Part shown: one piece after another, positions 9,742 to 49,817 of the stretch
Numbering within the stretch: position 1 is the stretch's first letter
Layout of the letters: each line of letters begins with the position of its first letter
Assembly: GCA_016211085.1 (NCBI GenBank)
Contig: JACQSY010000043.1
Location: 22,845-86,844 of the forward strand
Reading direction: 5' to 3'
DNA length: 64,000 nucleotides
Origin: Acidobacteriota bacterium
GTDB taxonomy: Bacteria > Acidobacteriota > UBA6911 > RPQK01 > JACQSY01
Made by a program: the position numbers and the translations under genes
Notes under the pieces: model-generated
Seen by the model: only the letters and a program-made list of their open reading frames with translations
Databases searched by the model: none
Told to the model about the DNA's origin: nothing

Positions 9742-11403
9742 ATGAGTCTTGATCTTACAACTAAGTCGAAGCAGCACCCGAGTTGTTCGGCAAGAAAACT
9801 CATCGTCTTTGGTTTGCTTGGGAGTGTTTTTTCAGCTGGTTGCATGCGGCCGCGGGAAGGCAGCCAAGTAACAGGAAATCTGACACCTGAGACAAGGACG
9901 GCGTCTTCTGCGAGATTATTGGAACTCGGGAAAACCGCCTACGAGAAGAACTGTGCTCCGTGTCATGGGTTGCAAGGGGATGGGCAGGGAGCAGCTTCTT
10001 ATCTGCTCTATCCGAAGCCTCGCAATTTCATCCTAGCTAAATACCGGCTTGTGTCCACCTGGGACTACGCTCCCGCCGATGAAGATCTCTTCCGAACGAT
10101 TTCGCGTGGCATGCCGGGCTCAGCCATGCCCTCCTGGGCGCATCTGCCGGAAGAGACGCGATGGGGGTTGGTTCATTACATAAAGTCATTTGCGCAAAAC
10201 CCCATTGAGATTGGCCCGGACCGTCAACCCACAGGTGTGGGCGACACACCTAGCGGCCGCATCAAGGTCCCCCCTGAGACACCCTATACCCCAGAAGCGA
10301 AGGTGCGCGCCCAGCAACTCTTTAAGACCAGTTGTGCTCCTTGCCATGGGCCGGAGGGCAAAGGAGATGGTCAGCAGGAACAAGAGGATTCGGAAGGTTT
10401 CCGCCTTCGGCCCCGCGACTTGACAGCGGGCATTTTTAAAGGGAGTCCTGACCCTTCAGAAGTGTATAAGCGGATTGTGGCCGGGCTGCCGGGTTCACCT
10501 ATGCCCGCAAGCCTGCATCTCTACGGGAATGCCGCGTGGGACGTAGTCCATTTCATTCTGGAGATGTCGAGCCCCGAACAAAGAGCAAGGATGGAGATGA
10601 AGCGTTTTCAGATTCCCGCCACGCGTGTTGACAGACTGCCTGACCATCCGGGTGACTCCATCTGGAGAAGCACCCCTGCGGTTAACCTGCACCTCATGCC
10701 GTTATGGTGGCGCAATAACCGTCCCGAAGTCGCTGCCGTGCAGGCCCTGCATAATGGGAAGGAAATCGCGATTCAGATAATCTGGTCCGATCCAACGCAC
10801 GATCATACCGCGATGCGACCTCAGGACTTCAGGGACGCCGCGGCTATTGAGTTTTCGCTGACTCCTGATCCTCCGTTCTTTGGCATGGGCGGGGAAGCCG
10901 CACATGCGGAGTCGGTTAATATCTGGATGTGGAAGTCCGAACGGCAGGCCGACCTGGAGCCTGCTTTTCAGGATCTGGACAAGATTTACCCCAACATCGG
11001 TATTGATTCGTACCCCAACCTGCTGCGTTCACCCCTGGAGCAGCCGACGCGCCGTGCGCTGACGCTCGAGTCAGACCCAACGTTTGTTACCGGCTGGGGG
11101 ACAAAAAACATCGTCTCGGACCCTACGCGGAAGAGTTCAGTTGAAGACCTTGCCGCTAGGGGATTTGGCACTCTCAAGGCTCGTCCCATGGTTGACCAGC
11201 AGGTGACCGCCACCGGAGTGTACATGACTGGATCTTACCGCGTTGTTTTCAGAAGGACGCTGGCCGGTAAAGGAAAGAGCGCAGTGTCACTTCGACCCGG
11301 AAGCCGAATTCCTGTCAGCTTTGCTGTTTGGGACGGCAGCGCTGGCGATCGTGACGGTAAAAAGTCGATCACAATTTGGCAAGAGCTTTCTATATCGAAT
11401 TAG
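9742..11403 (+). CDS. gamma-type subunit: probable lipoprotein with two class-I cytochrome c domains fused to an EB_dh (ethylbenzene-dehydrogenase gamma/NxrC/DdhC-like) heme-b domain
   Basis: Signal + candidate lipobox (VFSAGC); two CAPCHG heme-c motifs each in a cyt c551/c552-like context; C-terminal ~230 aa resembles EB_dh domain (…MPLWWRNNRPEVAAV…IWSDPTHDH…GMGGEAAH…NIWMWKSE…). Confidence 0.55.
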   Translation: MSLDLTTKSKQHPSCSARKLIVFGLLGSVFSAGCMRPREGSQVTGNLTPETRTASSARLLELGKTAYEKNCAPCHGLQGDGQGAASYLLYPKPRNFILAKYRLVSTWDYAPADEDLFRTISRGMPGSAMPSWAHLPEETRWGLVHYIKSFAQNPIEIGPDRQPTGVGDTPSGRIKVPPETPYTPEAKVRAQQLFKTSCAPCHGPEGKGDGQQEQEDSEGFRLRPRDLTAGIFKGSPDPSEVYKRIVAGLPGSPMPASLHLYGNAAWDVVHFILEMSSPEQRARMEMKRFQIPATRVDRLPDHPGDSIWRSTPAVNLHLMPLWWRNNRPEVAAVQALHNGKEIAIQIIWSDPTHDHTAMRPQDFRDAAAIEFSLTPDPPFFGMGGEAAHAESVNIWMWKSERQADLEPAFQDLDKIYPNIGIDSYPNLLRSPLEQPTRRALTLESDPTFVTGWGTKNIVSDPTRKSSVEDLAARGFGTLKARPMVDQQVTATGVYMTGSYRVVFRRTLAGKGKSAVSLRPGSRIPVSFAVWDGSAGDRDGKKSITIWQELSISN

Positions 11404-11454: not shown

Positions 11455-14400
11455 ATGCCGGATGAATCTCAGAAAACCGATCGCAAATTAACCCGGCGTA
11501 ACTTCTTGCAATGGGTTGGAGTTGGAACAGGAGGCGCCCTATTGGCACTGGAGCCCGGGTGTCGTTTATTGCAACCTGTGGTTACGGACGAAAATCCCCT
11601 TCACAGAGAGGTGGCCCGTGATTGGGAAAAAATTTATCACGACCAGTACAAATATGATCATTTCTTCGACTGGGTGTGCTCCCCTAATGACACCCACGCA
11701 TGCCGCATTCGCGCCTATGTCCGGAACGGAATTGTCGTGCGCTCTGGTGAGACTTACAACTACCACCAATACGCAGATCTCTATGGTAACCACGCTACCA
11801 GCAATTGGGAACCTCGACAATGCGCCAAAGGTTACACCTTTCACCGTGTCATTTACGGTCCCTACCGCCTGCGCCACCCCATCGTCCGGAAGGGGTGGAA
11901 GGCCTGGGAGGAGGCGGGATTTCCCGAGCTGACGCCTGAACTCCGGTCCAAATATATGTTTGACGCACGCGGTCAGGACGAGTTCATTCAGATCACCTGG
12001 GAAGATGCTTTCCACTGTATCGCCAAAGCACTGGTGGCTATTTCGAAGCGGTATAGCGGCGAGAACGGGAAGAAAAGGTTGCTGGCCCAAGGCTACCAGC
12101 CCGAGATGGTTGAAGCCGCGGGCGGGGCCGGCACCCGATGCATCAAGATGCGGGGAGGCATGGGGCTGCTCGGGGTGTTAGGGAAATACGGAATGTACCG
12201 GTTTAACAACTCCCTGGCATTGTTGGATTCGCTCATCCGAAACGTCGGTCCCGACAAGGCGCTGGGAGGCCGGAACTGGTCCAACTACACTTGGCACGGC
12301 GATCAGGCGCCAGGTCACCCTTGGATCCATGGCCTGCAGGCATCGGACTGCGACTTCAACGACCTTCGATTCTCCAAGCTGATTATCATGGACGGCAAGA
12401 ATCTGGTCGAAAACAAATTGACCGATTCGCACTGGTTTATCGAGTGCATGGAGCGGGGCGGTAAGGTCGTCGTCATTGCACCCGAATACGGCCCTCCGTC
12501 GACGAAGGCTGACTACTGGGTCCCCATCCGTCCGGCTACCGACGCGGCACTCTGGCTTGGCATCACCCGACTCCTGATTGAACGCAAGGCTTATGACGAA
12601 GACTTTCTAAAACGATTTACTGATTTCCCCCTATTGGTGCGCACCGACAACCTACGGCGGTTGCGCGCGCACGAAGTTTTTGCCAACTACAAGAGTTCCC
12701 TGTCGCCCGATGGCCCCTCGATGAAAATTCAGGGCCTGACGCAGCAACAACACGAGGCGCTCGGTGATTTTGTTATCTGGGAGACCGAAGCGAACGCGCC
12801 CCGGCCCGCGACCCGAGATCAAGTCGGAAAATCAATGCCCTTCAAACCGGCCCTGGAAGGGAGTTGGCAAGTGCGTCTGGCTAAAGGCGGCACAGTACGA
12901 GTGGCCACACTATGGACGTTGTATCAAACACACTTGAAGGACTACCACCTCGACACCGTCTGTGAAATCACTCGAGCGCCTCGCCATCTGATTGAGCAAC
13001 TGGCCGACGACATTGCTACCATGAAGCCGGTAGCCATCCATCAGGGAGAGGGGATTAATCACTGGTTCCACGCCACGGAAATGAATCGCGCCGCCTATCT
13101 TCCCTTGATGCTCACGGGCAACATTGGCAAACCGGGAGCGGGGTGCCACACCTGGGCGGGCAATTATAAGGCAGCCGTTTTCCAGGGATCCGCTTGGTCT
13201 GGTCCAGGTTTTAAGGGCTGGGTGGCCGAAGACCCCTTCCATCCCAATTTGGACCCGAATACTTCCGGCAAGGACATCCCCGCCCACGCTTACACGAAGG
13301 ACGAGGAGCCGGCTTATTGGAACCATGGTGATCTTGCTCTGGTAGTGGACACTCCCAAGTTTGGCCGCAAGAATTTCACCGGAACGACGCACATGCCCAC
13401 CCCTACCAAGGCGATACTCTTTACCAACGTCAACCTGATTAACAATGCCAAGTGGGCCTACGGGGTAATCAAAAACGTCAACCCCAACGTCGAGATGATC
13501 GTTTCCTTCGACATCCAAATGACCGCCTCGATCGAGTACTCCGACATCGCCCTGCCTGCCAATTCCTGGCTCGAGTTTGAAGATCTGGAAGTGACGGCCA
13601 GTTGTTCCAACCCGTTTCTGCAAATCTGGAAAGGCGGCATCACGCCGGTATTCAACAGCAAGGATGATCTGACGATCATTGCCGGCATCGCCGCAGCTCT
13701 CTCGGAGGTAATGGGGGACAAACGCTTTCGGGACTATTTTAAGTTCGAACTGGAAGGAAAGCGAAGTGTCTACCTGCAGCGATTGCTGGATTCTTCCACG
13801 ACCACTGCCGGCTACAAAGTCGAAGACGTCATGGCTGGAAAGTACGGCCCTCCGGGAGCCGCGCTGATGAACTTCCGCACCTATCCGCGGATCCCGTTTT
13901 ACGAGCAGATTCACGATAGCGAACCATTCCAGACCGACACCGGCCGCCTGAATGCCTATGCGGATATCCCAGAAGCAATCGAATACGGCGAAAACTTCAT
14001 CGTGCACAGAGAGGGACCGGAAGCAACCCCCTATCTCCCCAATGTCATTATCAGCAGCAATCCGTACGTACGACCGGAAGACTACGGGATCTCCCCAAAA
14101 GCTGAGCACTGGGACGCGCGCACCATTCGAAATATCAAGATGCCGTGGAGCCAAGTCAAGGAGACCCGGAACTTTCTGTGGGAGAAAGGCTACCAGTTCT
14201 ATTGCCTGACGCCCAAGACTCGCCACCGGGTCCACAGTTCTTGGTCCAATGTCGACTGGCACATGCTCTACGACTCAAACTTCGGCGACCCGTTCCGCCT
14301 GGACAAGCGTGCCCCATCCGTCGGAGAGCATCAGTTGCACATCAATCCTGCCGCGGCTCGAGATCTAGGAATCAACGATGGCGACTACGTCTTTGTCGAC

Positions 14401-14916
14401 GCTAATCCAGCCGATCGTCCTTACCTGAATGCCAACCCCGCGGATCCTTTCTACCGGGTATCGCGTTGCATGCTGCGGGTTAAGTACAATCACGCCTACC
14501 CGTACAACGTCGTGATGATGAAGCACGCGCCCTTTATCGCTACCGAGAAGAGCGTCAAGGCGCATGAGACCCGTCCGGACGGCAGGGCCCTATCGGAAAA
14601 CACTGGCTACCAGGCCAACCTGCGATATGGCTCGCAGCAGTCCATTACGCGCAACTGGCACATGCCTATGCACCAGACCGACAACCTGTTTCACAAGGCC
14701 AAGGTCTCCATGGCATTCATTTTCGGCGGCGAAGCCGACAACCACGCGCTCAATACAGTTCCCAAAGAGACCCTGATCCGGATCACCAAGGCGGAAGATG
14801 GAGGGCTCGGTGGAAAAGGGATTTGGAAGCCAGCCACCACCGGACATACACCGGATAACGAAAGCGAAACAATGAAGCTTTATCTGGAAGGTGGACTGAC
14901 TAGGGTGAGCAAATGA
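11455..14916 (+). CDS. Tat-exported molybdopterin oxidoreductase alpha subunit, NarG/NxrA-like (type II DMSO reductase family)
   Basis: Twin-arginine signal (TRRNFLQWVGVGTGGALLA); 1153 aa; N-terminal FS0 region aligns to NarG HGVNCTGSCSWKIYVKNG as CSPNDTHACRIRAYVRNG (C-x3-D-x3-C) followed by downstream Cys (PRQCAKG); length and motifs match periplasmic NXR/pNAR lineage. Confidence 0.85.
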   Translation: MPDESQKTDRKLTRRNFLQWVGVGTGGALLALEPGCRLLQPVVTDENPLHREVARDWEKIYHDQYKYDHFFDWVCSPNDTHACRIRAYVRNGIVVRSGETYNYHQYADLYGNHATSNWEPRQCAKGYTFHRVIYGPYRLRHPIVRKGWKAWEEAGFPELTPELRSKYMFDARGQDEFIQITWEDAFHCIAKALVAISKRYSGENGKKRLLAQGYQPEMVEAAGGAGTRCIKMRGGMGLLGVLGKYGMYRFNNSLALLDSLIRNVGPDKALGGRNWSNYTWHGDQAPGHPWIHGLQASDCDFNDLRFSKLIIMDGKNLVENKLTDSHWFIECMERGGKVVVIAPEYGPPSTKADYWVPIRPATDAALWLGITRLLIERKAYDEDFLKRFTDFPLLVRTDNLRRLRAHEVFANYKSSLSPDGPSMKIQGLTQQQHEALGDFVIWETEANAPRPATRDQVGKSMPFKPALEGSWQVRLAKGGTVRVATLWTLYQTHLKDYHLDTVCEITRAPRHLIEQLADDIATMKPVAIHQGEGINHWFHATEMNRAAYLPLMLTGNIGKPGAGCHTWAGNYKAAVFQGSAWSGPGFKGWVAEDPFHPNLDPNTSGKDIPAHAYTKDEEPAYWNHGDLALVVDTPKFGRKNFTGTTHMPTPTKAILFTNVNLINNAKWAYGVIKNVNPNVEMIVSFDIQMTASIEYSDIALPANSWLEFEDLEVTASCSNPFLQIWKGGITPVFNSKDDLTIIAGIAAALSEVMGDKRFRDYFKFELEGKRSVYLQRLLDSSTTTAGYKVEDVMAGKYGPPGAALMNFRTYPRIPFYEQIHDSEPFQTDTGRLNAYADIPEAIEYGENFIVHREGPEATPYLPNVIISSNPYVRPEDYGISPKAEHWDARTIRNIKMPWSQVKETRNFLWEKGYQFYCLTPKTRHRVHSSWSNVDWHMLYDSNFGDPFRLDKRAPSVGEHQLHINPAAARDLGINDGDYVFVDANPADRPYLNANPADPFYRVSRCMLRVKYNHAYPYNVVMMKHAPFIATEKSVKAHETRPDGRALSENTGYQANLRYGSQQSITRNWHMPMHQTDNLFHKAKVSMAFIFGGEADNHALNTVPKETLIRITKAEDGGLGGKGIWKPATTGHTPDNESETMKLYLEGGLTRVSK

Positions 14917-14966: not shown

Positions 14967-15329
14967 ATGCCCTACAACGATCCTGATCCGAAGGATCCGA
15001 CGATGCTGGTTGGCGTTGAAATACCTGCTGAGCAGGATGCAGACCTCGAAATGGCATACGCTTTCGCTGAAGAGTTCGCCGCCATGGGGTTTTCGGAAAA
15101 GCGTCTGCTGTCTCTCTTCCACCAGCCCTTTTATTCCGCTGCTTATCGCGCATGCAAGAACTTGGGCGAGGAGAAAATCAAGTCCGTCATTCGGGAAGCT
15201 CTCCATGTGTGGGGCGGTTCCCGGTTCGTCATCCAAGAGAAGCGCGACAGCCTCGACACATCGAGGGATAGTCATGGAGCAGCAGAAACCGGGCCGCGCA
15301 TCGGAAGAAATGAGGCCGGCTATGAGTAA
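14967..15329 (+). CDS. small acidic hypothetical protein between alpha and beta subunit genes
   Basis: 120 aa ORF from MPYNDPDPKD; stop overlaps the beta-subunit start in an ATGAGTAA arrangement (translational coupling); no recognised domain. Confidence 0.35.
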   Translation: MPYNDPDPKDPTMLVGVEIPAEQDADLEMAYAFAEEFAAMGFSEKRLLSLFHQPFYSAAYRACKNLGEEKIKSVIREALHVWGGSRFVIQEKRDSLDTSRDSHGAAETGPRIGRNEAGYE

Positions 15330-16590
15330 AGTGTACAACTGGCAACTCGGGCGTGAAATGAGTTACCCGTATGAGGCGAAATTTCCCGAACGTCAGTTCG
15401 CCTTTGTGTTCAACATCAACCGTTGCATTGCCTGTCAAAGCTGCACCATGGCATGCAAATCCACGTGGACCTTCAGCAAAGGCCAGGAACACATGTGGTG
15501 GGCTAATGTGGAGACGAAGCCCTACGGCGGCTACCCCCAGTTCTGGGATGTAAAGATCCTTGAATTGCTGGAGAAGGCAAACCCTGAAGGTCAGCGATGG
15601 ACCGGCCCGACTTCCGACAATGCAACGTCGTTGTATGGACGCTTTGCCGGACAGACCATTTTTGAGGCGGCGGAAAAAACACTGGACCCTCCAAGTTCTC
15701 GCGTCTTGGGATATCTGCCTGCGGACGAGGAGTGGAACTCACCGAATATTTATGAAGACAACCCGGTAGGCAAGAGGGGCGTCCGCGACAGGCTGCACGA
15801 GACGGGCGAACAACTTCCGGTCCATAATACTTGGTTCTTCTACCTGGCGCGGATCTGTAATCACTGCACCTACCCGGCTTGCCTAGCCGCTTGCCCGCGC
15901 AAGGCGCTCTACAAACGGCCGGAAGACGGCATCGTGCTGCTGGATCAAAGCGAGTGCCGCGGCTACCGAAAGTGCGTAGAGGCGTGTCCCTACAAGAAGA
16001 CCATGTATCGTGGCAACACCCGTGTCTCCGAGAAGTGCATCGCTTGTTATCCGCGAGTCGAGGCGACCGACCCCGAGAGCGAAGGCGAGCCAATGGAGAC
16101 CCGATGCATGACGGCCTGCATTGGGCAGATCCGGATGCAAGGATTGGTGAAACTGAACCCTGACGGAACTTGGGCGGAGGACCGGTACCACCCCCTGTAT
16201 TATTTGGTTCAAGTGGCCAAAGTAGCCTTGCCACTTTATCCCCAGTTGGGGACTTCGCCGAACGGCTACTACATCCCGCCGCGCTGGGTTCCCCGGGAAT
16301 ATTTGCGGCAGATGTTTGGCCCTGGAGTCGACCGCGCATTGGAACGTTATAACAATCCCGACCGGGAACTGCTGGCAGTGTTGCAGCTGTTCCGGCGCTC
16401 CAACCGGATTATTTACCGTTATGAAATCAAGGAAGGTCCGCTGGTTTATGAAGGCACCTATCGGGGCAGACCCGTACGCATTTACAACGATACAGCGATC
16501 GCGTTTGGCAAAAACGGCACGGAACTGTTTCGCACCAGCGTGGAGGAACCAGTGCATGTGCGTCCCGGCAAGCACCAGAATTCGATTTGA
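15322..16590 (+). CDS. iron-sulfur beta subunit, NarH/NxrB-like (four Fe-S clusters)
   Basis: Ferredoxin-type Cys clusters CIACQSCTMAC, CNHCTYPACLAACP, CRGYRKCVEACP, CIACYPRV…CMTAC in NarH order; start at MSKVYNWQ (alternative upstream Met at 15274). Confidence 0.85.
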   Translation: MSKVYNWQLGREMSYPYEAKFPERQFAFVFNINRCIACQSCTMACKSTWTFSKGQEHMWWANVETKPYGGYPQFWDVKILELLEKANPEGQRWTGPTSDNATSLYGRFAGQTIFEAAEKTLDPPSSRVLGYLPADEEWNSPNIYEDNPVGKRGVRDRLHETGEQLPVHNTWFFYLARICNHCTYPACLAACPRKALYKRPEDGIVLLDQSECRGYRKCVEACPYKKTMYRGNTRVSEKCIACYPRVEATDPESEGEPMETRCMTACIGQIRMQGLVKLNPDGTWAEDRYHPLYYLVQVAKVALPLYPQLGTSPNGYYIPPRWVPREYLRQMFGPGVDRALERYNNPDRELLAVLQLFRRSNRIIYRYEIKEGPLVYEGTYRGRPVRIYNDTAIAFGKNGTELFRTSVEEPVHVRPGKHQNSI

Positions 16591-16619
16591 CAACCCCGCA
16601 GACTGAAGGAACCAAAGGA

Positions 16620-17447
16620 ATGACTCCCAGTGACGATCAACGCCTTGGGGACGAAGCTCTCTGTCGCAGTGTTTTTTACAATCTGCTGTCGCTGGCATTG
16701 CACCCCCCGACAGCGGAAATTTGCAGTGCCATAAAATCAGAAAGTGCGGACCTTGCCCTGCGAGAGGCTGCGGCTGTACTCGACGCGTCCCCCATAGATC
16801 AGACTTCCACAGGGGGGTCCGAAAAGGGGAATCGCCGTCCGGATCTGGGCTCGCGGGTTGATCAATGGATCGCGACTTTTGACGGTCTCTCCCTGCAACT
16901 GTTGCTCTCTTCATATGGACAGCTGTTCGGCCATACAACCAGAGGGCCGGTTTGCCCTTATGAGACGGAATACGGTCAGGAAGCAGTTTTTCAGCAGCCG
17001 CGTCAGCTGGCGCAAATTACAGGGTTTTATCGCGCCTTCGGACTTGCCACACGAAGCGCTGAGCGCGAGCGGCCCGATCACATCAGCTGCCAACTGGAAT
17101 TCCTACAGTTTCTTTCCCGCAAGGAGGCCTATGCGCTGGGATGCGGAGGTTTCCCGATGCTGGAGGAGACCCGGAAGGCGACTCGACTCTTCCTGCGGGA
17201 TCACCTGGGCCGGTATGGAAGGGCCTTTGCGCATATGCTTCGAGAACACGAGCCGGAAGGCTTTTTCGGCAGACTGGCCGACCTGATGTTCGACTTTATT
17301 ACTTTCGAATGCCGGCGCCTGCGAATTGAGGCGGGTCCGCCCCTGCTGCAGCTCCGGACGGACGGGGAGGGCCATGTGCCAATGGCCTGCGGCAGCGGGG
17401 AATCCGAACTGGTGCAGCTGGAAACTCCCTTTTCATCCGCCAGGTGA
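16620..17447 (+). CDS. TorD/NarJ/DmsD-family redox enzyme maturation chaperone (delta subunit)
   Basis: TorD-like signature region (…CRSVFYNLLSLALHPP…); positioned after alpha/beta as in narJ/serD/ddhD; start at ATG preceded by AAGGA (a TTG at 16587 overlapping the beta stop is an alternative). Confidence 0.65.
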   Translation: MTPSDDQRLGDEALCRSVFYNLLSLALHPPTAEICSAIKSESADLALREAAAVLDASPIDQTSTGGSEKGNRRPDLGSRVDQWIATFDGLSLQLLLSSYGQLFGHTTRGPVCPYETEYGQEAVFQQPRQLAQITGFYRAFGLATRSAERERPDHISCQLEFLQFLSRKEAYALGCGGFPMLEETRKATRLFLRDHLGRYGRAFAHMLREHEPEGFFGRLADLMFDFITFECRRLRIEAGPPLLQLRTDGEGHVPMACGSGESELVQLETPFSSAR

Positions 17448-17555
17448 GACCGAAAAAGATGCCCGAGCTTCAACTTGCCGTGGTTTGAGCGCCGAAGCGG
17501 CAGTAGGAGACTACGAAGAGAGGCCCTTGCGGCAATTGGAGATAAAGTTGACGCA

Positions 17556-18794
17556 ATGAAAGTTCATGACTCTGGCGGAAACCTCGCTCTTTCGTGCCGC
17601 ATCGACTACGATGCGCGACTGGTGGAAGAGGCCGTCCTGTTGAGGATGGCCAGCCATCCTGAAGAAGCCAGATTCCGCAAGAGCCGCAACCCAATCTATG
17701 AAGTGGTTGATAGCGAACAACGAGAAAAGCGCTTTCGAGAATTCCACAGCGAATGGTTTGTTCGCCTCAGGATGGGAGAGCCTATTGTCGCCGCGCTTGG
17801 GGAGCAACCGACGCTTGGCGAAGACGTCCTCATCTGTTGTGTTGTTCGGGCGCTGTCCTCTTACGAAGAAGGGGCAGATCTGCACCAGCGGCGCAGTAAC
17901 GGAGGCGTGGGAGAACAGGGTCATCCGAACCGTGACAGGTTGAGAACGAATGTTCGGTCTCATTGCGTGGGGCCATCCACCAACGAGGCTCTCTCAGGTT
18001 CGATGAAAACACCCCGCCAGGACGCACATATGTATGCGAGCACGCTTCGGACACAGACTTCCCAAGACACTTCCATTGCAGGGGACAGTTCTAAGACGGA
18101 AAACGCCTCGAACCGGGCCGCCGCGGAAAAGATCATCGTAGTTAAACTCCAGCCTGCCTCCTTTTTAAATTCCGATCGCCTGCGGGCATTCCTCCGGCAC
18201 GAATTTATGCATATTGTCGATATGCTGGATCCCCGGTTTGGCTACCAGCCGGTGTTGCCCAAATCGGAATACGGCCCGGCTTATGACCATCTGGTGAAAG
18301 ATCGATACGGGGTTCTCTGGGACACCTGGATCGACGGACGATTGCAACGCCGAGGCTGGGCAGGCGGCCACGTTTGCGGGCAGCGACGCGCGGAGTTCAT
18401 CGCGACTTTTCCCATGTGCGGGGATGAGGTGGAAGAAAAATTTGCGCAGTTCTTCAACGCCGATTTCCTGACTCACGGGGCTTTGGCGGCATTCGCTTTA
18501 AATCCAGGGGGGGGCTCCAAGGTAGGAGTTGGGCGGGGCCGGGCGCAACCGTGTCCGCTCTGCCGATTCCCTACATCAGATTTCATCGATGGCACACGCC
18601 AGTTAACAAAGGAGGCAAAACAACAGATCGCGGTGGATTTTCCCAACTGGCGACCCGGGCACGGACTTTGCCGTCAATGTTCCGATTTGTACTTGGCCCG
18701 CGGATTATCCCAGAGCGCGGAAGCTGGGCTGCCGGGAACCCAGCGCCGCCAGGCGGATAACCTCGCCGCCTATGAAATCAATAAAAAAGCCTGA
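17556..18794 (+). CDS. hypothetical protein with HExxH motif and C-terminal CxxC…CxxC zinc-ribbon
   Basis: 412 aa from MKVHDSGG (RBS GGAGA 14 nt upstream); contains RHEFMHIVD (HExxH) and CPLCRF…CRQCSDLY; no family recognised. Confidence 0.45.
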   Translation: MKVHDSGGNLALSCRIDYDARLVEEAVLLRMASHPEEARFRKSRNPIYEVVDSEQREKRFREFHSEWFVRLRMGEPIVAALGEQPTLGEDVLICCVVRALSSYEEGADLHQRRSNGGVGEQGHPNRDRLRTNVRSHCVGPSTNEALSGSMKTPRQDAHMYASTLRTQTSQDTSIAGDSSKTENASNRAAAEKIIVVKLQPASFLNSDRLRAFLRHEFMHIVDMLDPRFGYQPVLPKSEYGPAYDHLVKDRYGVLWDTWIDGRLQRRGWAGGHVCGQRRAEFIATFPMCGDEVEEKFAQFFNADFLTHGALAAFALNPGGGSKVGVGRGRAQPCPLCRFPTSDFIDGTRQLTKEAKQQIAVDFPNWRPGHGLCRQCSDLYLARGLSQSAEAGLPGTQRRQADNLAAYEINKKA

Positions 18795-18872: not shown

Positions 18873-19271
18873 GTGATCTTTTCAACGAAGTGCCAACACG
18901 CCATTCGGGCATTGACCTACCTGGCCCGGTCGGGCAAGTCCTGCGCCCGAGAAATCAGTCGCAATCAGAAGTTGCCCTACCATTTTACTGGAAAGATACT
19001 TCAGGTCCTGCAGAAGACGGGCTTTGTGAGATCGGTAAGAGGTGCCGGTGGAGGGTTTGTTCTTACGCGGCCGGCAAGCAAAATCCGTCTTATCGACGTC
19101 TGGTCAGCTATAGATGGAACTGAGAAATTTGAGGGGTGCCTCTACGGTTTGAACCAATGCTCAGAGCTGAAACCCTGTCCTTTGCATGAGAATTGGACAA
19201 TCATGCGCCGTCACATAGAAAAGAACTTGAGCAACCAGAGCATTGCAGATCTGACTTACCCCAAGACATGA
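18873..19271 (+). CDS. Rrf2-family transcriptional regulator (NsrR/IscR-like, three-Cys Fe-S ligand set)
   Basis: N-terminal Rrf2 wHTH (MIFSTKCQHAIRALTYLA…ISRNQKLPYHFTGKILQVLQKTGFVRSVRGAGGGFVLTRPA) and C-x6-C-x5-C cluster (CLYGLNQCSELKPC); GTG start. Confidence 0.8.
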   Translation: MIFSTKCQHAIRALTYLARSGKSCAREISRNQKLPYHFTGKILQVLQKTGFVRSVRGAGGGFVLTRPASKIRLIDVWSAIDGTEKFEGCLYGLNQCSELKPCPLHENWTIMRRHIEKNLSNQSIADLTYPKT

Positions 19272-19868: not shown

Positions 19869-20743
19869 GATTTATGCCATAGGCGCATCGCTCAAATCGC
19901 GAACACTCAAGCATTGGCGCTTACTGCTTGGCCGGCGTCTACAAAGACGAACGCAGACCGAGCGTTCCTGTTAGCGCCATCGGAAAGGATCCGCAAAAAT
20001 CATCTCTGAATGTGCAGTGCGGAAGAAATCAGAGAGGCCCGGCCCCGACTAGGAGCTTGGGGCAAATTGCTGTCGAGACCGGTTAAGAGCGAACTGAGGA
20101 AGGAGGCCCGTCTTCGGCGCGATTACTCCTGGGGCATGTCCGTCGCCGATTTCGAGCCTCCCGAGTTGGAGGTGTGACTCTGTTTTTCTGTCCTTTTACT
20201 CACGCAAGTTTCGGGCCAAAACTAGGATCCTTTTTGACACGGCGAAAAAAGGCTGAAAGCATAGCTGCTTGCGTGACAAAACGAGCTATGGCTACGAAAA
20301 GACACTCCGTCTGAAAACGCTGGCGCGTAAATTCTTGCGAGATTTGCCCCAGAGGAGTTGGCTTTGCGACCCAACTTTGCCGGCGGCGCTTGAGTCGAGC
20401 CATGGCCTTGATCTTCTAAGGGCGAGAACTCGAAAAGGATTCCACTCAAGAATTCCCGGCAAGTTTGACGGGGCAACAGGAGGCTTGGTGCGCTGTTTGC
20501 ACCGTTAAGGTTCTTTGAAGATGCGGGTAGAGTGTACTATTGACACCTGCAGAAGAAATGCCCGCGCCAGGCAAGCTCAGCGCGGTCTGACATCGGAGCC
20601 GCGGCGTGAGCGAGCGGCCACTGAGTGCTGAGGACTGAGCAACGATACTCGCTCAGCACTCAGTCCTGAAAGTGCCTGTCTCTATCAGGCACCGCGGAGG
20701 ACATTACTTGTGCAGGATGCAATACGTAGCCAGTGAGGAGCCA

Positions 20744-22036
20744 ATGAGGCCATCCGTATTTCAATCACTTCTTCCGGAGCGGGGGGACTTTTATTTTTTG
20801 TTCCTGCGCATTTTCACCCTGCTGGGGGGGATAGCATGGTACCTGCTGGTCCCCTATGAGGCCGAACGCCGCAATTTTCTCGCTTGGCTCCTGGGGGCGT
20901 ATGCCTTCTACACCGTATGTCTTTATGCATTGGTGATCCTTCGTCCCGCGGCCATTCGCATTCTCTACCTGGTGACCCTCGCAGTTGATCTCGGTTTTGT
21001 CTACATGCTGATTCTGCATGTTGGCCGGCTGAGGGGGAGTTTTTTCATCGCCTACTATCTCTTGACTGCAGTTCACTCGTTTTATTTTGGTCTGAAAGTC
21101 GGACTCCCTTCGGCACTGGTCATATCTGCCTTATACCTTTCCAGCTATTATCGCTTGAATGGTCCAGTGGTGATTCCGTGGCCTGATCTCATCTTGAGAA
21201 TCTCTTTCTTATTTCTCATCGCGCTCTCGTTGGGTCTTTTGTCCGACCGCGAAAAACGAATGCGGAAAAAACTGCTCGAGCTCAATCAGGAACTGAGCCG
21301 CAAGAATGCCATCCTGGAGCAAACATATCGACACCTTTCAATAGGAAAGTTGATTGGCGAGATTGCAGAAGGTATCAACGGTCCCCTCGGCACCATTTCG
21401 CTACGTTCGGAATTTTTGATGGCCGAAGCGCGCGACCGCAAGATGCCTGCTGAGTTCGCGCGCGGGCTTGAGGTGATGCATCGCTGCAGTCACCAGGTGG
21501 CGCAGGTGGTAAGAAGTCTCCTGGCATTTTCCAAACAGGAGTACGAGCAGCAAGCGCTGAACTTTAACGAGCTGGTGGAGGATGCGCTGTTATTAACGGA
21601 GCGAGGTTTCAAGGGAAAGAATATCACCGTTCAAAAGCAGCTGGAGCCACAGTTGCCCTCCGTTCTGGGAGATTCCTCCGAACTTAAGGGGGTATTGATC
21701 AGCCTCATAAGCAACGCCATCGACGCTTTGCCGAAGGGAGGGACGATCAGGCTGTATACCCGCACCAGTTTTGCTGAGGGCCGATCGGTTATCTGTGAGG
21801 TGCACGATAACGGAACCGGTATTCCGGAAGAGGACCTGGAAATAATTTTTAATCCTTTCTTCACTACCAAGGCCAAAACGGGGGGGATCGGGCTTGGCTT
21901 GTCCACCAGCCTCAGCGTGATGAAAAAGCATAATGGGCTCATTGCGGTGCGCAGCCTTCTTGGGAAGGGTTCGGTGTTCACTATGTCGCTGCCGGCTTTT
22001 CGTCCGGCGCTTCCTGTTCGCAAGGGCGCAGCCTGA
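20744..22036 (+). CDS. membrane-embedded sensor histidine kinase (polytopic N-terminus, HisKA + HATPase_c)
   Basis: Five to six N-terminal TM helices, H-box (…IAEGINGPLGTI…), N/G boxes (HDNGTGIPEE…GGIGLGLS); start uncertain (ORF opens at 20672). Confidence 0.8.
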   Translation: MRPSVFQSLLPERGDFYFLFLRIFTLLGGIAWYLLVPYEAERRNFLAWLLGAYAFYTVCLYALVILRPAAIRILYLVTLAVDLGFVYMLILHVGRLRGSFFIAYYLLTAVHSFYFGLKVGLPSALVISALYLSSYYRLNGPVVIPWPDLILRISFLFLIALSLGLLSDREKRMRKKLLELNQELSRKNAILEQTYRHLSIGKLIGEIAEGINGPLGTISLRSEFLMAEARDRKMPAEFARGLEVMHRCSHQVAQVVRSLLAFSKQEYEQQALNFNELVEDALLLTERGFKGKNITVQKQLEPQLPSVLGDSSELKGVLISLISNAIDALPKGGTIRLYTRTSFAEGRSVICEVHDNGTGIPEEDLEIIFNPFFTTKAKTGGIGLGLSTSLSVMKKHNGLIAVRSLLGKGSVFTMSLPAFRPALPVRKGAA

Positions 22037-22041
22037 AAGTG

Positions 22042-23397
22042 ATGGCAGAAAAAAGCAGAGTTTTGATCCTGGACGAAGCCGACATGGCGGAATCAATCGG
22101 GCTGATGCTGGCGCGTAAGGGATTTGATTGCAACGTTTGTGTGAACCGCAGCGAGCTCGGACGCGTCATTGCATCCACCCGACCAGACATAGTAGTCACC
22201 GGGGTACGGCCGTCGGGTGCGAAGTCCTGGACCATTCTCGAGGTCATCAAGAAGCAAAATCCCGATCTTCCTGTAGTTATTGTCACTGGGTTCGCGACCG
22301 TGGATGCGGCTGTCGAAGCCATGAAAAGGGGGGCTGCTGACTTCATCTGCAAACCCTTCCACGCGGACGAACTGTTTTTGAAAATTCAACGAGCCCTTAC
22401 CCACGTGCAAACTCAAGCGGAAAATTCGCTGCTTCGTCATCAGCTGTATGCCGACGATCACGTATTCCCGGAGCTTCTCGGCCGAAGCAGCGCTATGAAG
22501 CGCGTTTTCGAGATGCTGGAAAGAGTGCACGCCTCGGAGAGCTGTGTTTTTCTTACCGGCGAGAGCGGAACCGGAAAAGAACTGGTCGCACGGGTGATTC
22601 ATCGCATGAGTGCCCGACGCCACGAAAAATTTTTTCCGGTGAATTGCGCGGGAATGGCAGAGAACCTGTTGGAGAGGGAGGTATTCGGACACGAAAAGCA
22701 AGCGTATGCCGGCGCGGCCAGTGCCCGGAGGGGCCTCCTTGAAATGGCGGAACATGGGACCCTTTACCTGAAAGAGGTGGGTGAGACCTCGCTTTCCTTT
22801 CAGGCTAGCCTGCTGAACGTCCTGGAGCACAACGAATTTCATCGCGTAGGAGGGAACAGGGTACTCCACGCCGACGTGCGAGTGATTGCTTCCTCCAGAA
22901 ACAATCTGGACGATCGCATCGCTTCGGGCGCTTTCCGCAAAGACCTGTACTACCGACTGTGCGTGGTACGCATTCATCTGCCTTCCTTACGAGAACGTAA
23001 AGAGGACATTCCTCTGCTGGTGGACCATTTTCTTCACAAGCATGGGCGAAAGATTTCCAAACGGATCACCGGAGTCAGCGCTGAAGCGCTCCAGAAACTG
23101 GAGGCACATTCCTGGCCTGGGAATATCCGGGAACTTGAGAACGTGCTCGAGCGCGCCGTTATCATGGCCGCGGGACAATCAATCACTCCCGCAGATTTGC
23201 TTCTGGAAAGAGCTTCCGAGATCTCAGAACCAGGGCGCCTTACCACGCTGGAGGCCATGGAAAAACAACTGATTGAACGGACTCTGGTCGAGTGTAGGTG
23301 GAATAAGAGCGTAGTGGCCAAAAAGCTTGGCATTGGAAGACGGACGCTTTATGACAAGGCGTCTCGTTTCGGAATTGGCCTCAAACCTGCAGAGTAA
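22042..23397 (+). CDS. sigma-54-dependent response regulator (NtrC family: receiver + AAA+ + Fis-type HTH)
   Basis: Receiver Asp region, Walker A GESGTGKE, GAFTGA-like ESELFGHEKGAYAGA, C-terminal HTH; adjacent to kinase. Confidence 0.85.
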   Translation: MAEKSRVLILDEADMAESIGLMLARKGFDCNVCVNRSELGRVIASTRPDIVVTGVRPSGAKSWTILEVIKKQNPDLPVVIVTGFATVDAAVEAMKRGAADFICKPFHADELFLKIQRALTHVQTQAENSLLRHQLYADDHVFPELLGRSSAMKRVFEMLERVHASESCVFLTGESGTGKELVARVIHRMSARRHEKFFPVNCAGMAENLLEREVFGHEKQAYAGAASARRGLLEMAEHGTLYLKEVGETSLSFQASLLNVLEHNEFHRVGGNRVLHADVRVIASSRNNLDDRIASGAFRKDLYYRLCVVRIHLPSLRERKEDIPLLVDHFLHKHGRKISKRITGVSAEALQKLEAHSWPGNIRELENVLERAVIMAAGQSITPADLLLERASEISEPGRLTTLEAMEKQLIERTLVECRWNKSVVAKKLGIGRRTLYDKASRFGIGLKPAE

Positions 23398-24293: not shown

Positions 24294-26330
24294 ATGAAAA
24301 TTAAAGGACGCTTTCAAATCTGGGTCGTCGGCTCAGTAATGGTCCTTGGATTCCTCAGTGTCTTTCTTGCCGCCCGCCTGGAAGTGGATCAACAGTATGG
24401 TCCGCTCGATAAGGAATTTTATTTATCTGATACCCAAGTCCAATTCATCAGGCCGGGTTTGGAGTTTCAAATTCTTGAAGTGACCATTGGAGCCGATCGC
24501 AAGCCGGTCGTAAAGATTTCACTCAAGGATCCCAAAGGCTTGCCTCTGGACCGCGATGGCATTTTTACGCCGGGACCGATTTCAACTACGTTCGTTATTG
24601 GCTACATTCCTGCTAACGCCACTCAGTACACGAACTACAATATTCGGAATGTTGCCAGCACGATAACCGGAAAAACCGCCACTCAGGCTACCAGTGATTC
24701 CGGGGGAAAATGGGCCAAGGTGGAAGACGGCGTGTACACGTACACTTTTGGAAATGCGCTGCCGGCAGGCTTCGACGGAAGCCTCACCCACACCATTGCT
24801 GCTTATGCCCGGCGCGACCTGACGGAATTCAATTTGGATCGCTACGTAAAGAACGCCGTATTTCACTGGGTGCCCAACGGGGGGGAAGTGAAGCAATGGC
24901 GCGATGTCGTTCGCACTGCGAATTGTAACGAGTGCCATAACCCGCTTGCTCTGCACGGAGGGGCGCGGCAAGAAGTAGGGTTGTGCATCCTGTGCCATCA
25001 GCCGCAGACCTCCGACCCTGATACAGGTAACACCGTGGATTTCAAGGTCATGATTCACAAGATCCACATGGGTCCCAATCTCCCCAGCGCCAAGGCTGGA
25101 AAACCGTACCAGATTATCGGAAACCAGGGTAGGGTATTTAACTTTTCCGAACACGTGCTCTTTCCGCAAGACATCCGTAATTGTGAAAAATGTCATAAGA
25201 ACGCCACCCAGGGCCTTGCGTACCTGCTGAAACCATCCGCAGCCGCCTGCGGCTCCTGCCATGATGACGTGAACTTTGCTACGGGTGTAGGCCACCCTGG
25301 CGGACCCCAGGCTTCCGACAATCTGTGCGCCACCTGTCATATTCCCGAGGGGGAGCTGGAGTTTGACGCCTCCATTAAAGGTGCGCACAAGATCCCAGCG
25401 AAATCAGCAGAGCTGAAGGGCCTTCAGTTGAAGATTTTAGGGGTCAGCAATACGGCGCCCGGCCAAAGTCCCACAGTTCTCTTTACGGTTACTGAAAAGG
25501 ATGGAACGGCTGTTGCTCCGAGTTCTCTCAACTTCTTACAGCTGGTGCTAAGCGGGCCGACCAAGGACTATGAGAATCTGATCATTGAGCCGGCACGCGA
25601 TGCGGTTCCCACGGCGGATGGCTACACGTACACTTTCAAAGGGAAAATTCCCGAAAACGCCAAGGGGAGCTTCATGGTTGGCGGGGAAGCTTATCGCATG
25701 GTCACGCTGGCTGCTGGAACTACCAAGGAACGACAGGTCCGCGAAACCGCCAATAACCCCGTGCAGTACGTTGCCGTCACGGATGCGAACGCAGTACCGC
25801 GCCGCCAGGTGGTTGCCACCGCCAACTGCAACCGTTGTCACGATGAGATGGTGATGCACGGAACCATCCGGCACGATCCGGAGAAATATTGCGTCGTCTG
25901 TCATATTCCATCAGGTACGGACGCGGCACGCCGGCCTGCAGACCAAATGCCGCCTCAATCTCGTGATTTCCGCTTCATGGTGCACCGCATCCACACGGGT
26001 GCGGATTTGACGCGGGAGTTCTCAATTTACGGCTTTGGCGGAGCCCTGGAGGCGAACGAGATTAACTTCCCGGGCGACCGGCGCGATTGCGAAAAGTGCC
26101 ACGTGAATAACTCCTATCGGCTGCCTCTGGCATCCGGCCTGCAACCGGTGCCGGTGCAGCGGGAATTCTTTACTCCCTATCCTCCCACGACAGCCGCGTG
26201 CCTGGGCTGCCATGACGGCGAAGCCGCGGCCGCTCATGCTTACACCATGATCACGCCGTTTGGTGAAGCGTGCGCTGCGTGCCACGGTACGGGTAGAGAA
26301 TTCGCTGTCGAGAGGGTTCATGCCCGTTAA
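24294..26330 (+). CDS. MtrC/OmcA-like decaheme c-type cytochrome (two pentaheme halves)
   Basis: Ten CxxCH motifs (CNECH, CILCH, CEKCH, CGSCH, CATCH | CNRCH, CVVCH, CEKCH, CLGCH, CAACH) split 5+5 over 678 aa; N-terminal hydrophobic signal/anchor. Confidence 0.65.
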   Translation: MKIKGRFQIWVVGSVMVLGFLSVFLAARLEVDQQYGPLDKEFYLSDTQVQFIRPGLEFQILEVTIGADRKPVVKISLKDPKGLPLDRDGIFTPGPISTTFVIGYIPANATQYTNYNIRNVASTITGKTATQATSDSGGKWAKVEDGVYTYTFGNALPAGFDGSLTHTIAAYARRDLTEFNLDRYVKNAVFHWVPNGGEVKQWRDVVRTANCNECHNPLALHGGARQEVGLCILCHQPQTSDPDTGNTVDFKVMIHKIHMGPNLPSAKAGKPYQIIGNQGRVFNFSEHVLFPQDIRNCEKCHKNATQGLAYLLKPSAAACGSCHDDVNFATGVGHPGGPQASDNLCATCHIPEGELEFDASIKGAHKIPAKSAELKGLQLKILGVSNTAPGQSPTVLFTVTEKDGTAVAPSSLNFLQLVLSGPTKDYENLIIEPARDAVPTADGYTYTFKGKIPENAKGSFMVGGEAYRMVTLAAGTTKERQVRETANNPVQYVAVTDANAVPRRQVVATANCNRCHDEMVMHGTIRHDPEKYCVVCHIPSGTDAARRPADQMPPQSRDFRFMVHRIHTGADLTREFSIYGFGGALEANEINFPGDRRDCEKCHVNNSYRLPLASGLQPVPVQREFFTPYPPTTAACLGCHDGEAAAAHAYTMITPFGEACAACHGTGREFAVERVHAR

Positions 26331-26379
26331 TCTCAGGTTGCGGGCGGGGGGCTGCAGAGCCGCGAACATTACCCGCGAT

Positions 26380-27270
26380 ATGATCCCCCCGCTCGTTTTT
26401 CATAATCGCGGTTCTGTAGCGTTTCTTTGGGGACCGGTCACAGTGCTGTTACTACTGATCCTGGCGCTGGGCGCCGGTCCCGCCCGCGCTCAGGCGCCGC
26501 CGGAAAAAGTCGGTAACGAGACTTGCCTCAGCTGTCACGATGTGGAACCGACGCTCTCCAGAACCCCTCATGCTGCCAAAGAATGTGAAAACTGCCACGG
26601 GCCGGGAAGCACTCACGTTGAAAACGGCGGAGATCTGAGCCTGAGCTTTCGGGCCAATCCAGCCCCATGGGCCGTGACGCAGTGTCTTTCCTGCCATCAG
26701 TCCAACACACACCTCACCGCCTTTCGTGCTTCCGCTCATGGAAGAAATTCCGTCGCATGCGTTTCCTGCCACCAGGTTCACCAGGAGCGTGCGGAGTTTG
26801 GACTCCTGAAAAAAGACCAGGCTGCTGTTTGCACGGATTGTCACCCGGCGACTCGGGCAGAGCTGCGCAAACCGTTCCATCACCCGGTTCTGGAAGGGGC
26901 AATGCGTTGCAGCGACTGCCATCAGCCGCACCTGGAAGAACGCAGGCCGCTGCGACGCCTCGTGCATGGATCTGACGATAGTTGCCTCTCGTGTCACTCT
27001 GATAAGAAAGGTCCTTTTATTTTCGAGCACGCTGCGGTAACGGTGAGTGGCTGTGAAACATGCCATCAGCCGCACGGCTCGGTCAATGCGAAGCTGCTCA
27101 GACGAACGCAAGTGCACCAACTTTGCCTGGAATGTCATAGCCGGACCCCGGGAGTGGCCGGCAAACAGCCTCCCGCATTTCACGATATAAGGACCGCGCG
27201 TTTCCGGAACTGCACGACCTGCCACCGTGAAATCCATGGTTCAAATGCCAGCCGGATCTTCTTCAGATAA
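26380..27270 (+). CDS. MtrA/PioA/MtoA-like periplasmic decaheme c-type cytochrome
   Basis: Ten CxxCH in ~300 aa (CLSCH, CENCH, CLSCH, CVSCH, CTDCH, CSDCH, CLSCH, CETCH, CLECH, CTTCH), signal peptide; size/heme density of MtrA. Confidence 0.7.
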   Translation: MIPPLVFHNRGSVAFLWGPVTVLLLLILALGAGPARAQAPPEKVGNETCLSCHDVEPTLSRTPHAAKECENCHGPGSTHVENGGDLSLSFRANPAPWAVTQCLSCHQSNTHLTAFRASAHGRNSVACVSCHQVHQERAEFGLLKKDQAAVCTDCHPATRAELRKPFHHPVLEGAMRCSDCHQPHLEERRPLRRLVHGSDDSCLSCHSDKKGPFIFEHAAVTVSGCETCHQPHGSVNAKLLRRTQVHQLCLECHSRTPGVAGKQPPAFHDIRTARFRNCTTCHREIHGSNASRIFFR

Positions 27271-27281
27271 TCGAGGACCCT

Positions 27282-29216: not shown

Positions 29217-29446
29217 GGATCTTCTCTTTCGGCGGTTCGTTTATCAATCCTTACACACCCACGATTGTTTAGTATCTCGTCGTTGAAGAAAAAATAATCC
29301 ACGAGTGAATGGTTAGTAGCGAAAGGGTTTTTTTGGGGGAGATTGGCTCATTTATTGGGTGAAATACCATGGGCGCATTGGCCTCTTTCACCTTTAGTTA
29401 ACTTAAAGTTTTTTATGCACAGCAAGTTAGGAGATTGGCCATCGTA

Positions 29447-29462
29447 TGGCGATTCCCTTGCA
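29447..29462 (+). promoter_or_regulatory. possible sigma-54-type promoter (TGGC-N8-TTGCA) before cytochrome c gene
   Basis: tGGCgattcccTTGCAt with canonical GG/GC spacing; lies only ~22 nt before the ATG, so TSS geometry is tight. Confidence 0.3.
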
Positions 29463-29483
29463 TCAACCAACATGGAGGAAATT

Positions 29484-29828
29484 ATGAAGAAAGAATTCCT
29501 GCTCTCCTTAATCGCACTTCTCATTTTCAGCTATTCAATCTTGCTGGCAGCGGATGATGGAGCCGCCGTTTACAAAGGCACCTGTTTGAAATGCCACGGC
29601 GAACTCGGAAAAGGGGATGGCCCGGCCTCCAAGATGTTTAAGCAGGGCCTGGGCGATCTTTCAAGCAAGGCCGGAATGGCAAAGTATTCGGATGAAGATC
29701 TTCAAAAGCTCATCTCCGAAGGCGGCCCCGCCATTGGGAAGTCCAAGGTCATGGCCCCTCAAAAAGGGAAGCTAACCGATGCGCAGATCAGAGCGCTGGT
29801 CGCTTATGTGAAAGGGCTCCAAAAATAG
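29484..29828 (+). CDS. monoheme class-I cytochrome c (periplasmic)
   Basis: Signal peptide then CLKCHG heme motif, distal Met candidate, 114 aa; RBS GGAGGA upstream. Confidence 0.7.
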   Translation: MKKEFLLSLIALLIFSYSILLAADDGAAVYKGTCLKCHGELGKGDGPASKMFKQGLGDLSSKAGMAKYSDEDLQKLISEGGPAIGKSKVMAPQKGKLTDAQIRALVAYVKGLQK

Positions 29829-32898: not shown

Positions 32899-32913
32899 CA
32901 GAAGGGCAATTTT

Positions 32914-33597: not shown

Positions 33598-33600
33598 AAG

Positions 33601-49816: not shown

Positions 49817-49817
49817 G

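Follow-up and report, generated by a model that had tools for sequence, protein, structure and literature searches.

The 64-kb stretch of Acidobacteriota DNA analyzed here (hereafter the window) carries an nxrA-like gene whose predicted product is the catalytic subunit, with a Mo-bis-MGD center (MGD, molybdopterin guanine dinucleotide), of a periplasmic-type nitrite oxidoreductase (NXR). Nucleotides 11677 to 11703 of the window very probably encode the FS0 [4Fe-4S] site of this subunit, with the cluster held by C75, C83, C123, and the carboxylate of D79. An Asp-ligated FS0 has already been published as characteristic of the periplasmic NXR clade and is no new feature; the Asp at this position had been reported from sequence ahead of the crystal structure of 2021. 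Likewise, the protein itself is an ordinary, uncharacterized member of a known family. The value of the assignment lies in annotation: a gene labeled merely "molybdopterin-dependent oxidoreductase" in its NCBI entry (MBI4445265.1) can, judging from its predicted product and those of its neighbors, confidently be named as that of an NxrA-type subunit whose partner genes are all present. NxrA, the cytochrome fusion described below, hemA, and one more window protein correspond to NCBI entries within MBI4445264 to MBI4445303, titled "MAG: Acidobacteria bacterium" (MAG, metagenome-assembled genome).

The translation of 11455 to 14916 on the forward strand contains FFDWVCSPNDTHACRIRAYVRNG (the same region in longer form reads YDHFFDWVCSPNDTHACRIRAYVRNG). 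Within it, bases 11677 to 11703 encode C75-S-P-N-D79-T-H-A-C83, that is, exactly the span from C75 to C83, with TGC for C75 (11677 to 11679), AAT for N78 (11686 to 11688), GAC for D79 (11689 to 11691), and TGC for C83 (11701 to 11703). A stretch of 13 residues, CSPNDTHACRIRA, is identical between this protein and NxrA of Kuenenia stuttgartiensis (PDB 7B04). In the Kuenenia crystal structure, solved at 3.0 Å, the FS0 ligands are C67, D71, C75, and C115 (3Cys/1Asp); nitrate reductase (NAR) and ethylbenzene dehydrogenase (EBDH) have a 3Cys/1His cluster with His at the position of Cys67 (PMC8387239). With an offset of +8, Kuenenia C67, D71, C75, C115, N70, and D275 become C75, D79, C83, C123, N78, and D283 in the window protein. 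The register is the same against more distant relatives. Residues 56 to 151 align with Escherichia coli NarG (1q16_A) at an E value of 7e-6 (HMMER), without a gap in the motif, pairing "vcspndthacrirayvrng" with "sthgvnctgscswkiyvkng," and the alignment with the perchlorate reductase subunit PcrA has this register too. The first-pass annotation of this DNA had placed Cys75 opposite the NarG His, Asp79 opposite the central Cys, and Cys83 opposite the third ligand, and had proposed that the downstream Cys of PRQCAKG completes the set. The ungapped NarG and PcrA alignments agree with this placement, and C123 indeed falls opposite the Cys of NarG EPRGC. A chance C/D pattern was considered as well and was rejected, since the motif aligns without gaps with three family members of solved structure and hardly varies among homologues.

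Conservation of the motif was assessed in three sets of homologues, i.e., the 120 nearest database proteins (78 to 100% identity), 35 representatives of 50%-identity clusters, and the best 80 genome loci. The latter are the best 80 of at least 594 stretches in species-representative genomes that encode a relative, and all locus counts given here refer to them; since one of the two genome search patterns contained the motif, these counts are biased toward it. The 120 nearest database proteins have CSPNDTHAC without exception. The N terminus is present in 78 of the 80 loci, with C-x3-D-x3-C in 75 of these 78 and C-x3-C-x3-C in the other 3, at 64 to 66% identity (L064, Planctomycetota; L072, Chloroflexota; L075, Rokubacteria GWA2_70_23), all three of which came from the search pattern without the motif. 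Among the cluster representatives, the set C-N-D-C-C (ligand 1, Asn, and ligands 2, 3, and 4) occurs in 24 of 35, down to about 40% identity. The all-Cys set C-N-C-C-C occurs in eight, mostly at or below 43% identity but with one at 64% and one at 52%, and the NarG-like set H-N-C-C-C is found in one representative and in the PcrA reference. One further representative has C-P-E-C-C and one has D-N-C-C-C. In the family alignment A3 (34 sequences), C75, N78, C83, and C123 are at least 90% conserved, and position 79 is variable. A published NxrA alignment, in its machine-read text, has the dipeptide "ND" in anammox bacteria, Nitrospira, Nitrospina, Nitrotoga, and Hydrogenobaculum and "NC" in Beggiatoa, Thiocapsa, Nitrobacter, Nitrococcus, and E. 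coli (PMC8387239). The Asp is thus typical of the NXR clade, absent from the NarG-like members examined, and not strictly required within the clade. Its description in the first-pass annotation as characteristic of periplasmic Nitrospira/anammox-type NxrA holds for the enzyme clade, to judge by 7B04 and the published alignment, but not as a universal trait, as some members of the clade have Cys instead.

All-Cys variants of FS0, with the motifs CSPNCTHEC and CAPNCTHNC, lie inside the NXR clade in L064 (5485 to 9354), L072 (5980 to 9450), and L075 (979 to 4716), and also in the database proteins P0124 and P0220. Such natural variants would be convenient controls for what the Asp contributes. 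Among the distant 50%-cluster representatives, P0137 (34% identity) reads CADPEGHGC, in which Glu replaces the Asp and Pro the Asn, and P0198 (34% identity) has Asp at the first-ligand position, followed by N-C...C...C.

Beyond the FS0 site, the entire protein resembles Kuenenia NxrA. In a phmmer search of all PDB chains, residues 11 to 1151 matched 7b04_B with an E value of 0 and a score of 1,744 bits, and the HMMER alignment is free of gaps from the N terminus to residue 408; the Pfam Molybdopterin domain is matched at 1.2e-33. In Kuenenia 7B04, Asp275 coordinates the Mo and Asn70 is proposed to face the substrate (PMC8387239). The equivalent of Asp275, D283, is invariant in 34 of the 34 sequences of alignment A3. 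A 2025 review lists four differences between NXR and NAR near the active site, Asp71/Cys53, Asn312/Thr259, Glu527/Ala542, and Lys917/His1092 (PMC12300631), and at all four positions the window protein has the NXR-type residue (D79, N320, E532, and K921). These residues are altered only in representatives at or below 51% identity (e.g., His at 921 in P0122, 51%) and are unaltered among sequences at or above 62%. At the N terminus, R14, R15, and L18 of the twin-arginine translocation (Tat) motif are invariant in the homologue alignment A1, and R14 and R15 also in A3. The first-pass annotation had taken the FS0 pattern together with the Tat signal to suggest N-oxide chemistry. The motif TRRNFLQ is present, but the FS0 ligand set itself makes no case for such chemistry; the case for nitrite/nitrate conversion is carried instead by N78, D283, N320/E532/K921, and the 62% identity to a characterized NXR.

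Structure prediction points in the same direction. With distant representatives added to the alignment, a second AlphaFold2 (AF2) run yielded a model with a mean predicted local distance difference test (pLDDT) score of 81.5 and a predicted template modeling score of 0.85. In a Foldseek search of the PDB with this model, the six NxrA chains of 7B04 ranked first (template modeling [TM] scores of 0.90/0.92, 62% identity over 1,120 columns), followed by PcrA (TM, 0.62 to 0.64; 19 to 20% identity) and then EbdA (18%) and NarG (16%). An identity as NarG or another type II enzyme resembling PcrA or EbdA was rejected on this identity of 16 to 20%, on the first FS0 ligand, and on the residues of the active-site region. 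Likewise, the narG equivalog model TIGR01580 gives 157.6 bits against a cut-off of 1,084. The top NCBIfam match is TIGR03479, the alpha subunit of type II dimethyl sulfoxide (DMSO) reductases, with a score of 335.5 bits where the cut-off is 984.75. The corresponding models for beta, gamma, and chaperone are also top matches that stay below their cut-offs, and an NXR-specific model was not found in the NCBIfam collection. Fold and architecture place the protein in the wider type II group, yet it is outside the training range of TIGR03479.

The gene lies in a cassette of five, encoding an alternative NxrC, NxrA, NxrB, a chaperone, and a protein that we refer to as orf439 (Table 1), and most of the best 80 loci share this arrangement. 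The alternative NxrC starts with a leader resembling a signal or lipoprotein peptide (…VFSAGC), has two sites for c-type heme (CAPCH, residues 71 and 198), and ends in a heme b domain of the EB_dh/NxrC type. The Kuenenia cytochrome protein 6h5l_B is matched by residues 59 to 280 (E = 1.8e-43) and Kuenenia NxrC, 7b04_C, by residues 331 to 551 (E = 1.2e-24); the heme ligand Lys305 is aligned, and the HMMER alignment shifts the Met155 ligand by one position. The full-length diheme c/heme b fusion is kept upstream of nxrA in most loci at or above 68% identity, and the Chloroflexota and Brocadia loci have the heme b part alone. For NxrB, phmmer aligned residues 105 to 526 of the long open reading frame (ORF) with residues 1 to 410 of 7b04_A (E = 2.6e-172), with the Cys groups in register, and the start was placed at 15322 because that Met aligns with residue 1 of Kuenenia NxrB. 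The chaperone matches the NCBIfam model for type II DMSO reductase chaperones at 3.2e-21, below the curated cut-off, and its gene adjoins nxrB in most of the loci. For orf439, searches of Pfam, NCBIfam, and PDB sequences gave no match. In 55 of the 80 loci, Brocadia loci included, its homologues are neighbors of nxr genes, and conserved residues comprise E243, H246, and D249 of an (H)ExxHxxD-like motif and C-terminal CxxC pairs, among them the CPLC residue C360. Where the protein starts is uncertain because the exact translation of the ORF is absent from the protein collection.

Table 1. Coordinates of the NxrA-type gene, its functional sites, and other features of the window
Feature	Position	Strand	Details
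nxrA-like gene	11455..14916	+	1,153 aa; predicted Mo-bis-MGD catalytic subunit of periplasmic-type nitrite oxidoreductase
Tat motif T13-R-R-N-F-L-Q19	11491..11511	+	Read from the translation; followed by the hydrophobic stretch WVGVGTGGALLAL
FS0 [4Fe-4S] ligand motif C75-x3-D79-x3-C83, also holding N78	11677..11703	+	Identical to Kuenenia CSPNDTHAC
C123, fourth FS0 ligand (EPRQCAKG)	11821..11823	+	TGC; counterpart of C115 in Kuenenia and of the EPRGC Cys in NarG
D283, predicted Mo ligand (WHGDQAPGHP)	12301..12303	+	Equivalent to Kuenenia Asp275; +8 offset, ungapped HMMER region
Alternative NxrC	9742..11403	+	553 aa; Pfam Cytochrom_C (twice) and EB_dh
nxrB-like gene	15322..16590	+	422 aa; Fe-S electron-transfer subunit; Pfam Fer4_11
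NarJ/TorD-like chaperone (NxrD-like)	16587..17447	+	Pfam Nitrate_red_del, 2.6e-17; ORF bounds, true start may be an internal ATG
orf439, conserved NXR-cluster protein	17475..18794	+	439 codons
Histidine kinase and sigma-54 regulator pair	20672-23397		Precedes the multiheme cytochrome module
Multiheme cytochrome module	24294-30439	+	Extracellular-electron-transfer style; about 5 kb from the nxr cluster
Second molybdoenzyme and NrfD modules	30559-36185; 36762-38060; 42486-45388	+; -; +	
Two tandem FeoB, three-subunit 2-oxoacid:ferredoxin oxidoreductase, two hemerythrin-domain proteins	47864-52377; 54541-57670; 60897-63232		

The composition of this cluster was already known, as Lucker et al. (2013) describe such genes (PMC3578206): an alternative NxrC with c-heme sites and a heme b domain (alt_NxrC) in Nitrospina, a TorD-like chaperone as a conserved NXR-cluster gene product, and a putative zinc finger protein conserved between the clusters of Kuenenia, Nitrospira, and Nitrospina. 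The product of orf439 is probably this putative zinc finger protein. In the Brocadiaceae-type loci (L065, L066, L069, L071, and L076), the chaperone gene and orf439 are directly upstream of nxrA, and in four of the five, nxrC and nxrB precede them. Just past the cassette of the window, at 18873 to 19271 on the forward strand, lies a gene for an Rrf2-family regulator with weak matches to IscR, NsrR, and RirA, all below the cut-offs. Rrf2 genes adjoin nxr genes in 10 of the 80 loci (L021, L022, L028, L040, L043, L047, L064, L068, L070, and L078), which suggests Fe-S- or NO-responsive control of the nxr genes.

The host of the cassette is an Acidobacteriota MAG, neither a Nitrospira nor an anammox bacterium. 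Among the best 80 loci, relatives at 78 to 84% identity are found in Acidobacteriota, Vicinamibacteria, Binatia, Methylomirabilia, and others; those at 68 to 73% in Omnitrophota, non-anammox Planctomycetota, Verrucomicrobiota, and one Nitrospinota MAG (69%); and those at 63 to 67% in Chloroflexota, Brocadiaceae, and others. A cultured isolate, Limisphaera sp. VF-2 (Verrucomicrobiota, L035), carries the full cassette at 72% identity. None of these 80 loci (all at or above 63% identity) bears the name Nitrospira. An Rfam scan of the window gave zero matches, and thus no rRNA or tRNA for taxonomy. The motif and the cassette, which are present in hundreds of genomes of Acidobacteriota, Methylomirabilota, Planctomycetota, Verrucomicrobiota, Chloroflexota, and further phyla, therefore mark an enzyme lineage that is spread across many phyla, and not an organism or a catalytic direction. 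The support that the first-pass annotation had drawn from the motif for a lineage assignment is sound as far as the enzyme clade is concerned but does not extend to the organism, and the Asp as a mark of Nitrospira or anammox organisms was rejected, given the scatter of relatives over many phyla. Metagenome surveys already list nxrA in such phyla, without biochemical support. Hence, some caution is warranted, as neither the motif nor the cassette can label an organism a Nitrospira-like or anammox nitrite oxidizer. Two labels among the loci stand out: L060 (66%) is a MAG labeled Hydrothermarchaeaceae archaeon, and L051 (69%) is a MAG titled Akkermansia muciniphila that looks like a mislabeled or contaminated bin.

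Several points weigh against our reading of the site and of the enzyme. No curated NCBIfam model is passed by NxrA, every match remaining below its cut-off. A first AF2 run, with an alignment of 41 sequences all at or above 78% identity, was unusable (mean pLDDT of 49, with residues 1 to 140 below 50), and even in the second model, the FS0 region (residues 61 to 130) is just moderate, with pLDDT scores of 68 to 87. That model is free of cofactors and was compared at the level of the fold; the proposed Asp ligation rests on the identical motif in 7B04, a reference structure with a resolution of 3.0 Å. In addition, clade members with Cys at the position of D79 exist, so that the Asp is not indispensable, and the Acidobacteriota members of the clade are known from sequence alone. 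Conceivably, D79 might be no cluster ligand at all, with FS0 left three-coordinate, or with solvent or some other residue completing it, and the Asp acting in the second shell or in the active site only. The resolution at which Asp ligation was assigned (PMC8387239) and the cofactor-free model would leave room for this, as would the acceptance of Cys at this position in some clade members and of Glu in one distant representative. We nevertheless regard it as highly improbable, because the crystallized enzyme, in which Asp71 was modeled as a ligand, has the identical 13-residue motif, because NarG, PcrA, and the all-Cys variants have a Cys ligand at this position, and because Asp, Cys, and Glu are all metal-binding residues. 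It also seems very doubtful that the protein is an NXR-like enzyme for another oxyanion or some unknown compound, in which case the motif and the Tat signal would be no sign of N-oxide chemistry. Type II DMSO reductases of the same architecture do use perchlorate, selenate, ethylbenzene, and dimethyl sulfide, PcrA and EbdA rank next among the structural matches, the set of FS0 ligands serves electron transfer and does not determine the substrate, and the NCBIfam results could be read in the same way. Set against this are the 62% identity to a biochemically characterized NXR, the retention of the substrate Asn (Ile in ethylbenzene dehydrogenase; PMC8387239), and the NXR type of all residues that distinguish NXR from NAR, with the identity dependence noted above.

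As for the physiological direction, a role of the enzyme in nitrate reduction or in both directions and a role in nitrite oxidation are about evenly balanced for this host. We would give slightly less than an even chance to the possibility that an NXR-clade enzyme serves here as a periplasmic nitrate reductase, bidirectional or redox balancing, with the FS0 Asp being clade inheritance and not a marker of nitrification. The host itself would fit this, and the nearest relatives (63 to 84%), in Acidobacteriota, Binatia, Methylomirabilia, Omnitrophota, non-anammox Planctomycetota, Verrucomicrobiota, and Chloroflexota, include no established nitrite oxidizers. The Kuenenia NXR is described as working in both directions; the Asp is also found in the enzyme of the hydrogen oxidizer Hydrogenobaculum (PMC8387239 alignment), and the literature speaks of "Beggiatoa and Hydrogenobaculum nitrate reductases." Furthermore, the window holds genes for MtrC/MtrF-like and other multiheme cytochromes, NrfD-type complexes, and 2-oxoacid:ferredoxin oxidoreductase, and a terminal oxidase was not found within its 64 kb. 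However, the window is about half of a 126-kb contig of a draft genome, so that the absence of oxidase or carbon fixation genes means little. The 2-oxoacid:ferredoxin oxidoreductases also occur in Nitrospina and Nitrospira, both of which have a reductive tricarboxylic acid cycle, and a c-heme-bearing NxrC suits delivery to a cytochrome c oxidase equally well (both PMC3578206). A more specific scenario, which we consider a long shot, would place the NXR module of this host outside classical nitrification. Through the fused diheme c/heme b NxrC, it would be wired to the MtrC/MtrF-like and other multiheme cytochromes encoded 5 to 15 kb downstream and would link extracellular or mineral electron transfer with nitrate reduction (or nitrite oxidation), e.g., in nitrate-dependent Fe(II) oxidation. 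In a broader sense, the widely transferred cassette of alternative NxrC, NxrA, NxrB, chaperone, and zinc finger protein could enable nitrite/nitrate redox reactions in many phyla that are not regarded as nitrifiers.

For the reading that we prefer, that of an NxrA-type subunit with an Asp-ligated FS0, the best-supported mechanism runs as follows. NxrA would be exported in a folded state via the Tat pathway, with NxrB presumably carried along, as has been proposed for Nitrospira and Nitrospina. The Mo-bis-MGD center, ligated by D283 and with N78 toward the substrate, would interconvert nitrite and nitrate. Electrons might travel between Mo and FS0 and on through four NxrB clusters to the heme b of the NxrC domain, from where the two fused c hemes would pass them to, or receive them from, periplasmic or membrane partners. 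We infer that the cofactors occupy their sites as in the Kuenenia enzyme. The N78-D79 dipeptide would join the active site to FS0, and the carboxylate in place of a thiolate may tune the FS0 potential to the high-potential nitrite/nitrate couple, in line with the published proposal that the Asp-for-Cys plus Cys-for-His exchange tunes this potential (PMC8387239).

Compared with known systems, the closest likeness is to the Kuenenia NXR (Kustd1700, PDB 7B04; Chicano et al. 2021, PMC8387239), with which the window protein shares the 13-residue stretch, the four FS0 ligands, the substrate Asn, the Mo-ligand Asp, and the Tat signal, as well as the partners NxrB and an NxrC heme b domain with its Lys ligand. 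The TorD-like chaperone and the zinc finger-like neighbor are shared with the Brocadia loci. The Kuenenia host, in contrast, is an anammox planctomycete, the cluster-encoded NxrC domain is fused to a diheme cytochrome c module in the Acidobacteriota MAG, and the Brocadiaceae order C-B-chaperone-orf439-A (four of five loci) differs from the order altNxrC-A-B-chaperone-orf439 found here. No NXR-T homologue was evident among the neighbors scanned, with no search aimed at NXR-T, and tubule formation is not expected to be inferable. The periplasmic NXRs of Nitrospira and Nitrospina (Lucker et al. 2010, 2013) belong to the same clade, with a Tat-exported NxrA and the "ND" dipeptide (PMC8387239 alignment), and their clusters likewise have an alternative NxrC with c-heme and heme b, a TorD-like chaperone, and a putative zinc finger protein (PMC3578206). 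These organisms are proven chemolithoautotrophic nitrite oxidizers, whereas the Acidobacteriota host is known from its genes alone. With the type II enzymes NarG (1Q16), PcrA (4YDD), and EbdA (2IVF), the likeness is one of fold class (TM, 0.59 to 0.64), of position and spacing of the FS0 motif, of the invariant Mo-ligand Asp, and of NarH-like and chaperone partners, and the substrate Asn is common to NarG and PcrA. Apart from their low identity to NxrA, NarG and PcrA differ in an FS0 of the form H-x3-C-x3-C...C (3Cys/1His) instead of C-x3-D-x3-C...C. NarG lacks functional Tat export and faces the cytoplasm.

Downstream of the cassette, the multiheme cytochrome module encodes an MtrC/MtrF-like multiheme cytochrome (678 aa), a second multiheme protein (336 aa, Paired_CXXCH), a monoheme cytochrome c, and a c7-like cytochrome. 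A 644-aa ORF at 27282 to 29216, without a Pfam match and with nothing significant in a search of PDB sequences, is possibly an outer membrane porin. A second molybdopterin oxidoreductase (779 aa), whose best PDB relatives are just acetylene hydratase and ArrA (about 1e-28), is followed by 4Fe-4S, NrfD, and multi-cytochrome c subunits, and two more NrfD-containing modules are present besides. The window also holds two-component regulators and a NapC/NirT-like cytochrome. The FeoB proteins, the 2-oxoacid:ferredoxin oxidoreductase, and the hemerythrins fit a low-oxygen lifestyle and leave the direction of NXR catalysis undecided. Of mild interest in this context are the breadth of the cassette over phyla, the natural Asp/Cys variants, and the adjoining cytochromes of the extracellular-electron-transfer type.

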